The notes below the pieces were generated by a model that did not search any database, was not told the DNA's origin, and saw nothing but the letters and a program-made list of their open reading frames with translations. DNA of 14,511 bases. Origin: a virus (Duplodnaviria; Heunggongvirae; Uroviricota; Caudoviricetes). Both the position numbers and the translations under genes were made by a program. Below, one piece after another: positions 1,744-3,921 of this stretch. The stretch lies in the IMG/VR virus record IMGVR_UViG_2579778535_000016, positions 1 to 14,511 of that record; one strand, written 5' to 3'. Position 1 is the stretch's first letter; every line of letters begins with the position of its first letter.

Positions 1744-2472
1744 TTAGGCAGCTTTGGTGCTGTTCAGGATATGGCGCAGAGCATCTACACCATTAGCGTT
1801 GTAACGGAATGCCTCAATCTGCTTACTTGAGTGCGCTGATTTATCCAGGAAGAACTTACCGTACTGCTCAGTTTTGAGGTTGTTTGCGTTAGCAATGCGA
1901 CCAATCTTGTTGGCCGTTACTCCAAGCTGCTCTGCAACCTCCCCTGCTGAGTAGTAATGCTCTTCTATTGCTGGAAGAGGTATTGCATTAAAACCAACGA
2001 TCGGGTTGATTATGCTTGCTGCCGCAGTCTACTTTGCTTCCGGCGCAAGATTTGGCATCAAATCGAACAGATTGGTAACAGCTTCAACCGTCATTTTCAA
2101 TGTTCGCGCCTGGCGATACTCAACAAGTCCACTCGACGATTTACCGCTTTTAATGTGCGCTTCTTGCATACTTTCAAGTTGGTCTACAAGTGAGCGGCGA
2201 ACAGCTTTAGATTCACGAGCAGCCACTCGAAGGGCTTGCTTAATTGACATAACAACTTTTTCAGAAGTTGTCTTGTTTGATTTTTGAACTACGAAAATTT
2301 CGTAGTGCTCACCTTCAAGTTCATCCTTAATGCGTGCAATAAAGTCGTTATTTCGGACTTCTTTTTCCCCGCACTGTCTACGAGCATGATTGACCATCTC
2401 AAGCAGGCGCTGGCTGTCAATGGTTTTATCCGTGACAACGGATCCGATGTTTGCTACATTCTTAAAAGTCAT
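1744..2472 (-). pseudogene. Ant-type antirepressor interrupted by an in-frame TAG at 2029..2031
   Basis: ORF MTFKNVANIGSVV... (ATG at 2470..2472, AAGGAA RBS) stops at amber 2029..2031. The same frame then continues for 94 sense codons (TAAASIINPIVGF...HYYSAGEVAEQLGVTANKIGRIANANNL...ALRHILNSTKAA) to TAA at 1744..1746, with no ATG/GTG/TTG start inside. The C-terminal part resembles the ANT/KilAC antirepressor domain. Confidence 0.65.
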
Positions 2473-2560
2473 TAGGCATTCCTTATGTGGTAGTAAGGGT
2501 GTGACATAGGCCGCCAGCAGCACACTGGCGGTTTTCTTTTTGCGCCGTCCGGTGCACCAA

Positions 2561-3186
2561 TCAATGAATCCATTCCTCGCCGCGCAGTTTTGCCAGCATT
2601 GGCTGAGCGTTCTTTACGACAAAATTGTTGGTATCAAGATTCTTCATTTCACGAAGAAGTGATTTCTTGGTTTCTTCTGACATGTAGCGAGTCTCATATG
2701 CAATATCGTAAATCCTTCCTGAAAGCTCAGAACCAATTTGCTTCATTCCTGGGTAGATGTGTTTGCACATTTGTTGACTCTTCTCCATCCACAATTGTAA
2801 GTAGCAGAGATTAACCAGCTCTTCGTCAGTAAACTGTTTTGCAATCGGTGAGCATTCTGCCTGCCGATCCAAAATATCCAGCACCCAGCGGCGGAACTCT
2901 TTAGCTACATCGGTACGTGCGAAAATGGCGATCAGATGCGCCCCACGAAGCGAGAAGACACGCATTTTTTTCGGTAATTCCCTGAGGTCACTGATTCAAT
3001 GACCTGAGTCATTCCTTCAGAAAACTCATCACTATTTTGATTAAATAAGTTAGTAATGGACTTGGTGCTTTTGTACTTCATCGCCGAGGCCAAGTCTGCG
3101 GAAGTGAACCAAACACCTTCCAGATTAGCGACTGGAGAAAGCTGAACACCTTTGAAGTTGTACACTGATTTCGCTATAATATTCAT
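2561..3186 (-). pseudogene. Bro-N domain antirepressor-like protein split by a -1 frameshift at a 7-nt homopolymer tract
   Basis: Upstream frame (MNIIAKSVYNFKGVQLSPVANLEGVWFTSADLA...SGNYRKK) and downstream frame (MRVFSLRGAHLIAIFARTDVAKEFRRWVLDILD...) together make a Bro-N-like domain. The frames meet at T7 (plus 2965..2971; A7 on the coding strand); an A8 tract would give a continuous ...NYRKKMRVFSL... ORF. The start at 3186 is tentative. Confidence 0.6.
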
Positions 3187-3259
3187 GTTGGTTTTCTCGC
3201 AAAAGTTTACTGACATAGAGGCCCGGTTTGTGTCCCCACACTGCCGGGCTTCGCCATTT

Positions 3260-3433
3260 TTAGCTACCATTCGACACCTCTTCCCTTACCCCTTTTGCCA
3301 GTAAACGAACAATCGCAGAGTTCAGCGAAACGCAGTCCATTTCTGCCAATCGACGAAGCTCCTGATTCAGTCGAGAAGGTAGCCGAAGATTGAGTTTGAT
3401 GTTTTTGCGTTCAGTAAAAAGCATATCCTGCAT
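3260..3433 (-). CDS. arc: Arc-like ribbon-helix-helix repressor, about 58 aa
   Basis: KLNLRLPSRLNQELRRLAEMDCVSLNSAIVRLL matches the Arc/Mnt RHH fold (compare P22 Arc QFNLRWPREVLDLVRKVAEENGRSVNSEIYQRV). Start chosen at ATG 3431..3433, preceded by GGAG; first gene of the minus-strand operon, divergent from the mnt-like gene. Confidence 0.7.
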   Translation of the reverse strand: MQDMLFTERKNIKLNLRLPSRLNQELRRLAEMDCVSLNSAIVRLLAKGVREEVSNGS

Positions 3434-3543
3434 TATTTTATCTCCACATGGGGCCAAGTTAACGCTTGGTATTAATTTAACACCATTGCTAGGCATGTCA
3501 AGTTGGCCCCATAATGAAATCAAGAAATATTTTGAGGTTTGCC
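3434..3543. promoter_or_regulatory. Divergent promoter/operator region between the arc-like and mnt-like genes
   Basis: 110-bp intergenic region between divergent starts. Contains an imperfect inverted repeat ATGGGGCCAAGTT (3448..3460) / CAAGTTGGCCCCAT (3499..3512) and an internal CCAAG-TTAAC-GCTTGG near-palindrome. Confidence 0.5.
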
Positions 3544-3921
3544 ATGAGTAAGTATCCAAGTCAGATGCAGGACAAGTTCAATCTGCGATTCCCAGACGGA
3601 ATGCGTGACGCTATCGCCGAGCGAGCTAAACGCAATGGCAGGTCGATGAATTCGGAGATCGTGCAGATACTGGAGGATGCGCTAATGCAGCCAGCGGTTA
3701 AGGTTCAAAGTGAGCTGAACGTCGATTTGTTCGCTGGCGATTTGGCAGATGATGATAAAATCATTATTTCAAAGGCTCAACTTCTACAAAAAATCAATGA
3801 AACCGTACAGGGAACTATTGATGCCACAGCAGAACACTTAGCCAAAGCTACTGCGGATGCCACGTTAAAAAGTTTGTCTGAAAAATTCGATTTCGTTCCT
3901 AAAAACAAAAAGCCCACCTGA
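3544..3921 (+). CDS. mnt: Mnt-like ribbon-helix-helix repressor with a C-terminal extension, 125 aa
   Basis: FNLRFPDGMRDAIAERAKRNGRSMNSEIVQILEDAL closely matches P22 Mnt (FNFRMPMEVREKLKFRAEANGRSMNSELLQIVQDAL). ATG at 3544 with GAGG RBS; stop TGA at 3919..3921. Confidence 0.8.
   Translation: MSKYPSQMQDKFNLRFPDGMRDAIAERAKRNGRSMNSEIVQILEDALMQPAVKVQSELNVDLFAGDLADDDKIIISKAQLLQKINETVQGTIDATAEHLAKATADATLKSLSEKFDFVPKNKKPT

Follow-up and report, generated by a model that had tools for sequence, protein, structure and literature searches.

Why does a prophage immunity cassette keep both of its repressor genes in working order when both of the effector genes that they govern are broken, and are those breaks real? 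The question is raised by positions 1744 to 3921 of a 14,511-nucleotide stretch of tailed-phage DNA (positions 1 to 14,511 of IMG/VR record IMGVR_UViG_2579778535_000016, hereafter the window). The original prediction read this segment as a module like immI of phage P22, with intact mnt-like and arc-like repressor genes and two inactivated antirepressor-type genes, which we call here effector 1 and effector 2. Homology supports the assignment of the segment to a P22 immI-type ‘ant moron’ in which both repressor genes are intact. We consider it very probable that the effectors of this module were lost by genuine, recent and inherited knockouts, a history with which drift and selection are both compatible.

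The layout resembles that of P22 immI. On the minus strand an operon runs from the arc-like gene through effector 1 to effector 2, with the Mnt-like gene diverging on the plus strand; each of these elements lies where it had been predicted, and homology extends to P22 Mnt, to P22 Arc and to the C-terminal domain of P22 Ant. The Mnt-like protein matches Pfam Arc (E=2.6e-20) and phrog_7906 (E=3.6e-41) and is identical at 21 of 40 positions (53%) to residues 8-47 of P22 Mnt, the ribbon-helix-helix (RHH) part. Exactly this protein is present on 47 contigs and is indexed in 74 blocks of the collection; a genome-collection scan made with it returned only distant relatives from other genera. The Arc-like protein shares 30% identity with P22 Arc over 40 amino acids (aa; BLASTP E=1e-5) and matches the Arc-like family phrog_228 (E=3.7e-7), its Pfam Arc score of 19.5 bits falling marginally below the cut-off of 20.4, and RefSeq lists its homologue in E. 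coli 55989 as an Arc family DNA-binding protein.

Effector 1 is homologous in part to P22 Ant. Adding one base yields a protein of 208 aa that matches P22_AR_C (E=1.9e-13), Bro-N (E=1e-9) and the Ant family phrog_245 (E=5e-51). The similarity to P22 Ant is confined to the C-terminal domain (29% identity, BLASTP E=9e-10), the N-terminal domain being Bro-N and not P22_AR_N. The labels given in the original prediction need correction, since it is the gene called ‘Bro-N’ that has homology to Ant, and the gene called ‘Ant-type’, effector 2, has no detectable Ant similarity. The lesion in effector 1 was described as a homopolymer frameshift; it is a real, single-site frameshift of more complex origin. 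Where intact homologues read CGT AAA AAA GTG the window reads CG AAAAAAA TG, so that on alignment one base is lost and another substituted, which is more than a simple lengthening or shortening of the tract. Codons 72-74 are taken up by the A7 tract, codon 75 is the first altered residue, and the break falls inside the Bro-N domain, to which the Pfam match assigns residues 24-105. Past the frameshift, the out-of-frame codons compared with a Salmonella homologue carry 17 synonymous and 2 non-synonymous changes, a ratio of non-synonymous to synonymous substitution rates (dN/dS) of 0.03. Homologues fall into 2,396 protein clusters, and among the best 120 almost all are full length (208-243 aa).

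Effector 2 matches the ‘anti-repressor’ family phrog_1726 over its full length (E=2.5e-98); neither Pfam nor NCBIfam gave a match, and no similarity to P22 Ant was detected. Here the predicted amber codon was confirmed as a real, single-site change, C to T, beyond which the frame stays open to the TAA at 1744-1746. Codon 148 is CAG in 5/5 same-length homologues compared as DNA, and Gln148 is invariant in 20/20 homologues at 64-90% identity. Past the amber codon dN/dS is 0.14-0.22, and ENA holds an otherwise identical 242-aa protein with Q148 (P0241) on two contigs of no more than 1.2 kb. Homologues number 1,922 protein clusters, almost all of the best 120 being 241-255 aa. A different, independent frameshift allele of the 242-aa gene is present in another E. 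coli lineage (P0257, 161 aa, 11 contigs). For both effectors, sequence searches against solved structures gave chance-level matches only.

Alignment to intact homologues, which had been proposed as a check, makes the full-length forms of 208 and 242 aa the norm. The same operon is found in E. coli 55989, in strain E66 and in phage JEP4, about 92% identical in nucleotides across window positions 1799-3262 and with effector genes of 627-639 bp (208-212 aa) and 726-729 bp (241-242 aa), and each of the 30 best E. coli genome matches, from 378 matching E. coli records, lists both effector proteins. Among intact relatives the nearest come from a Salmonella prophage (97% identical) and from E. coli (95%). 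Both effector genes in the window are thus truly disrupted, and both repressor genes are intact, as had been claimed.

How the two lesions are shared dates them. Both occur in identical context in every carrier read; with the window’s own source included, these carriers are 17 distinct contigs or assemblies, drawn from NCBI, ENA and Logan. The window is an exact match to GCA_000503395.1. Seven NCBI assemblies carry both (GCA_022410025.1, GCA_900604085.1, GCA_027276205.1, GCA_018160195.1, GCA_013057485.1, GCA_044148885.1 and GCA_044078855.1), and exact look-up places the truncated effector products on 16-21 contigs. Because both recur in the other assemblies read, the lesions are real alleles. 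Carrier flanks are 99.8-99.98% identical to each other, and within 1159-4021 the cassette shows at most one single-base difference across carriers. The low dN/dS past both lesions, together with the Q148 protein on record, makes the lesions recent. An allele-specific 42-mer, used to seek single-lesion intermediates, found no match in IMG/VR or the JGI metagenomes. Read from these comparisons, each lesion arose recently and once and has been inherited by every known carrier, with no additional decay since.

The carriers also differ in how much prophage is left. The prophage of GCA_022410025.1 appears complete, with replication genes at one end, int at the other and the head and tail genes between them. 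The window corresponds to it after two clean deletions, and outside int the two sequences show 0 mismatches. A remnant still smaller than the window (L034) has both lesions; in GCA_027276205.1 only ~9 kb of prophage is kept, again with both. Since complete prophage, window and remnant all share both lesions, the lesions came before the gross deletions. Overall decay of a defective prophage, considered as sole cause on account of a truncated portal gene and a tape-measure/J-like fusion, was rejected, as the apparently complete copy has the same two lesions.

Both deletions can be placed in the window. At 7729-7734 the start of a 980-aa tape-measure gene is joined to the end of an 833-aa J-like gene, giving a 200-aa open reading frame (ORF) at 7340-7942. 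At ~9667-9668 about 7.1 kb is gone, from within the portal gene to just before the major tail gene, leaving 206 of 489 aa of the portal gene at 9529-10149. The integrase gene (57-1098) may have a history of its own: in the carriers L005, L010, L011 and L017 all 43-45 differences from the window fall within this gene, and L009 has 22, with the adjacent 2.8 kb identical or one base different in all five, which suggests recombination with another intS allele.

What drove the knockouts is a separate matter, and the most economical reading is that an accessory function, dispensable or harmful, was lost while the prophage was resident. It is possible, and we hold the idea only tentatively, that both knockouts were positively selected, an antirepressor being costly to a lysogen through spontaneous induction or through cross-induction of co-resident prophages, and that they were a first step in taming the prophage. 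Such an origin would suit lesions that are the oldest shared events, preceding all large deletions, in a cassette otherwise unchanged across carriers, with the amber codon the sole amino-acid difference from an intact allele on record. By gene calls, which are not a rigorous test, there are no other split genes in ~37 kb of the most complete copy, and the same 242-aa gene has been hit by a different frameshift on the 11 contigs of the other lineage (P0257). However, all carriers form one young lineage (flanks 99.8-99.98%, cassette identical) in which neutral mutations can hitch-hike, the second gene of an operon is expected to drift once the first has been knocked out, and ant modules have already been described as high-flux and decaying (PMC2629481). 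More doubtful again is a fuller version, in which inactivation of the effectors was selected as the earliest disarming of a still complete prophage, the repressor and conversion genes being kept and slippage in the A7 tract leaving antirepressor 1 reversible; the locus would then be a natural snapshot of stage one of a prophage domestication aimed at the antirepressor.

Conditional or leaky expression, also raised in the original prediction, fares much worse and we regard it as very unlikely. On this reading the 208-aa protein (…YRKKMRVF…) would be regained by a -1 slip, ribosomal or transcriptional, at A_AAA_AAA, the original Gln would come back wherever UAG was read through or suppressed, and the A tract could also serve as a reversible on/off switch. 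The heptamer does lie in the zero frame, the -1 shift does give the exact homologous continuation, and a suppressor that inserts Gln would bring back the ancestral residue. The tract is not of constant length, one Logan contig carrying the window’s Bro-N allele with A6 instead of A7 (P0286, 122 aa), but exact look-up found no A8 allele on record. Past the site the RNA folds less well than shuffled controls (z = +1.85), leaving no stimulatory structure. The frameshift is not a conserved feature, because the homologues examined at the site are one continuous ORF, and the listed clusters are full length. In E. coli, slippage is stronger at A_AAA_AAG than at A_AAA_AAA. Programmed recoding is in our view unlikely.

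Still a little less credible is the proposal that the short products are functional in themselves, namely a fragment of Bro-N, a protein consisting of P22_AR_C alone after a restart at the ATG at 2965, and an N-terminal domain of 147 aa. An ATG-started ORF of 134 codons does span the P22_AR_C domain; in effector 2 the amber codon lies near a PHROG-match boundary, and residues 146-238 match C-terminal-domain families that are stand-alone or differently fused. Split forms, however, were seen only in this lineage, the homologues listed being fused and full length, so relatives did not provide the functional short forms that might have overturned the prediction. In addition the frameshift sits inside the Bro-N domain, no in-frame start of at least 30 codons follows the amber codon, and a structural model places residue 148 inside a helix. 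Sequencing or assembly artefact, to which a seven-base homopolymer as classic error site would lend itself and which had been named as a possible refutation, has a negligible chance of being correct, as the same two alleles appear in other NCBI, ENA and Logan assemblies, including contigs of different structure.

Several considerations weigh against our own account of effectors lost by inherited knockouts. The N-terminal fragments, 74 in-frame residues from the first gene and 147 aa from the second, could keep some activity. The in-frame A_AAA_AAA and near-cognate Gln read-through of UAG could yield traces of full-length product, and such trace leakiness may occur. The operator and promoter assignments given below are consensus matches only. 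The word antirepressor, as applied to the 242-aa protein, comes from the PHROG label alone, and on structural modelling this protein may be something else. An AlphaFold2 model of an intact 242-aa homologue (predicted local distance difference test score, pLDDT, 72) has two domains, with residue 148 within a helix; a PDB search with this model gave no significant whole-protein match, and the modelled last ~70 residues weakly resemble winged-helix DNA-binding domains of the MerR/RacA type.

The regulatory DNA of the cassette (Table 1) was compared in the same way with that of P22. The spacer between the mnt-like and arc-like genes (3434-3543, 110 bp) contains a pair of divergent promoter-like sites with a 16-bp overlap, similar to that of the annotated Pant and Pmnt of P22, and the Pant-like candidate reads into arc and both effector genes. 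In P22 positions 14794-14863 the order TTGACA, -10 element, palindrome, Shine-Dalgarno sequence and ATG parallels that of the Pant-like region here. A short palindrome at 3454-3469, for which a hairpin was reported at 3453-3470, sits where P22 has Omnt. The candidate operator arms belong to an extended inverted repeat (I1) whose arms at 3432-3463 and 3497-3528 are 72% complementary; the Oarc and Omnt sequences of P22 differ from these candidates.

Table 1. Genes, lesions and candidate regulatory features of the immI-type cassette (window positions).
Feature	Position	Strand	Description
Mnt-like gene	3544-3921	+	125 aa, intact
Arc-like gene	3260-3433	-	57 aa, intact, first gene of operon
Effector 1 (Bro-N + P22_AR_C)	2561-3186	-	208 aa if repaired; pseudogene by net -1 nt frameshift
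Effector 2 (phrog_1726 ‘anti-repressor’)	1744-2472	-	242 codons; pseudogene by nonsense mutation
Frameshift site	2965-2971	-	T7 run, A7 on coding strand; zero frame stops 11 codons later
Amber codon	2029-2031	-	TAG in place of CAG, Gln148; single C to T change
Pmnt-like promoter candidate	3486-3515	+	TTGCTA, 18 nt spacer, CATAAT; consensus scan 9/12
Pant-like promoter candidate	3474-3501	-	TTGACA, 16 nt spacer, TG-TAAATT; consensus scan 10/12 plus extended -10 TG
Candidate operators	3449-3513		inverted-repeat arms 3449-3461 (ATGGGGCCAAGTT) and 3501-3513 (AAGTTGGCCCCAT), 12/13 match in 13-nt core
Sar-like antisense unit	3152-3262	+	promoter 3152-3180 (TTGAAG, 17 nt spacer, TATAAT); alignment to P22 Psar/sar/terminator
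Candidate second antisense unit	2432-2541	+	promoter 2432-2460 (GTGACA, 17 nt spacer, TG-TACATT)

A sar-like antisense unit and a candidate second one are new here and absent from the original prediction. The first lies in the spacer between the arc-like gene and effector 1, its promoter falling within the start of the effector 1 gene. An alignment to P22 sar takes in the -10 element of Psar, the terminator hairpin and the stretch complementary to the start codon and ribosome-binding site of ant. The predicted sar-like RNA (~3187-3262) is complementary to the start codon and ribosome-binding site of effector 1, with a terminator stem at 3218-3252 and a T-run at 3257-3261. Across 8 sequences this stem is 98.8% paired, with 3 compensatory pairs, versus 30-61% with slid partners, and of 200 shuffles of the predicted RNA, 199 fold less well than the RNA itself (z-score -3.2). 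An Rfam search of 1150-4100 gave no match, sar included; the homology to sar was established by direct alignment to the P22 record. A second unit probably precedes the 242-codon gene. Its promoter block resembles Psar, and its candidate RNA (~2467-2541) crosses the start and ribosome-binding site of that gene before a strong terminator stem (2508-2534) and a T-run. About 125 nt here are invariant in 7 relatives with differing flanks, which leaves no variation from which covariation could be scored and fits a functional element.

By analogy with P22, the intact system would work as follows. A Pant-like promoter would drive arc, then antirepressor 1, then effector 2, and in the lysogen the Mnt-like protein, made from the divergent overlapping promoter, would hold this operon off. 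The Arc-like protein would limit the operon after infection, and short antisense RNAs would block translation of the effectors, one of them sar-like and a second unit probably acting before the second effector gene. In the window both effectors are loss-of-function alleles, because of which the antirepressor arm is dead and the cassette now regulator-only. The mnt gene may have been retained since its product would still repress incoming homologous ant operons, and its transcript possibly reads into the O-antigen acyltransferase gene directly downstream.

The likeness to P22 immI thus comprises a divergent Mnt-type gene (53% in the RHH part), an Arc-type first gene (30%), an antirepressor with P22_AR_C (29%), overlapping divergent promoter-like sites and an antisense unit alignable to Psar, sar and terminator. 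There are clear differences as well. The antirepressor begins with Bro-N where P22 Ant has P22_AR_N, a second effector of 242 aa, unrelated to Ant, is present with an apparent antisense unit of its own, the Mnt-like protein, 125 aa long, differs in its C-terminal part, and both effectors are inactivated. The location differs too: in P22 the cassette stands between gene 16 and the tailspike gene 9, whereas here it lies outside that slot, from int/HumD on one side to acyltransferase/tailspike on the other, so the architectural match that had been claimed does not extend to position.

Closer in content are the prophage of E. coli 55989, phage JEP4 (Lederbergvirus) and related prophages, which have the same order of arc, Bro-N plus P22_AR_C gene (208 aa) and 242-aa gene, and in which a 125-nt junction segment is identical. 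In contrast to the window their effectors are intact, their cassette occupies the canonical P22 slot adjoining ejection-protein genes, the divergent regulator is a 106-aa Arc-family or a 213-aa helix-turn-helix protein, and a 73-aa gene and a second mnt-like gene follow the cassette. Decay of such modules has precedents. Degraded ant genes are known from the P22-like phages HK620 and Scho1, within ant modules that form high-flux regions and decay (PMC2629481), and phage L keeps only an mnt-like remnant (PMC8022706). The window resembles these in that immI-type regulators are kept and the antirepressor is degraded or lost. It differs in that decay is at its first stage, with two point lesions, the rest intact and low dN/dS, and in that two effector genes are hit, on a prophage backbone that is not P22-like.

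Cassettes of the order regulator, arc, antirepressor and second effector were also found in other surroundings: among siphovirus tail genes in a Salmonella prophage (L028, 5412-7579), among myovirus baseplate and sheath genes in E. coli prophages (L029-L032, ~4346-6729) and in the canonical P22 slot in E. coli 55989 (L001, 3456-6068). The first effector varies, with a Bro-N or a P22_AR_N N-terminus and sometimes a true Ant of P22_AR_N plus P22_AR_C, and the second gene is of the 242-aa or of the ORF6N type. As the cassette is found among siphovirus and myovirus tail genes also, its location is not conserved, and on these placements the immI-type cassette behaves as a mobile module.

The prophage that carries the cassette in the window is lambdoid and of siphovirus type, integrated beside yfdC (intS/argW region) in a phylogroup-A-like E. 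coli; on the chromosomal side the flank with yfdC, mlaA and fadL matches E. coli K-12 at 100% identity. The window is not a P22-like phage. Apart from the immI-like cassette it encodes an IntS-type integrase, a LexA-boxed HumD/UmuD’-like protein, an acyltransferase-3 and an SGNH/GDSL-domain tailspike, together with fragments of siphovirus head and tail genes, terminase, Rha and lysis genes.

Downstream of the ant operon, an intact gene for a 129-aa HumD/UmuD’-like S24 peptidase (1232-1621, minus strand) has just upstream a perfect LexA box (TACTGT-N8-ACAGTA, 1639-1658; ~0.01 chance matches expected), and by this motif it looks like an SOS-controlled accessory gene. Directly after the 242-codon gene there is a 7-bp hairpin with a UUCG loop (AGCCCAC-UUCG-GUGGGCU; 1699-1716, minus strand), which may serve to terminate the operon or to stabilise RNA; it is absent from the output of the terminator scan, and a poor T-run follows it.

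On the other side of the cassette, between the mnt-like stop codon and the acyltransferase gene, lies a perfect (CAGAGG) hexamer array of 8.5 copies (3922-3972). Other carriers of this prophage have 5, 6, 8 or 13 copies, and it is because copy number differs among carriers that we class the array as a variable-number repeat; every unit holds a GAGG Shine-Dalgarno-like motif. No plus-strand terminator was found between the mnt-like and acyltransferase genes, so that co-transcription is possible, and on this layout the two genes may be co-transcribed. The acyltransferase-3 gene (4022-5035, plus strand, 337 aa) stands tail-to-tail with the tailspike gene (5049-7283, minus strand, 744 aa), whose product has Tail_spike_N and GDSL/SGNH esterase matches. 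The acyltransferase may be a receptor-acetylating conversion gene adjoining a possibly deacetylating tailspike. Both genes are retained even in the smallest remnant (L034). At 12809-13327 on the minus strand an intact Rha-family gene (172 aa from its ATG; Phage_pRha and ORF11CD3) separates the lysis genes from the small terminase gene, the place of rha in P22 too; the P22 record labels that counterpart ‘anti-repressor’.

Taken as a whole, the locus is a known kind of module undergoing a known kind of decay, caught at an unusually early and well-dated stage. For annotation, the two split ORFs should be recorded as pseudogenes of proteins of 208 and 242 aa. For the family, immI-type cassettes with a recognisable sar-like antisense RNA move among podovirus-, siphovirus- and myovirus-type enterobacterial prophages. 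The carriers form a series from complete prophage to 9-kb remnant, all with the same two lesions, and so provide a dated order of events, from point knockouts of the induction effectors to later structural deletions. Without demonstrated selection this is ordinary accessory-gene decay; if the knockouts were indeed selected, it would be a tidy natural example of host-level prophage taming.

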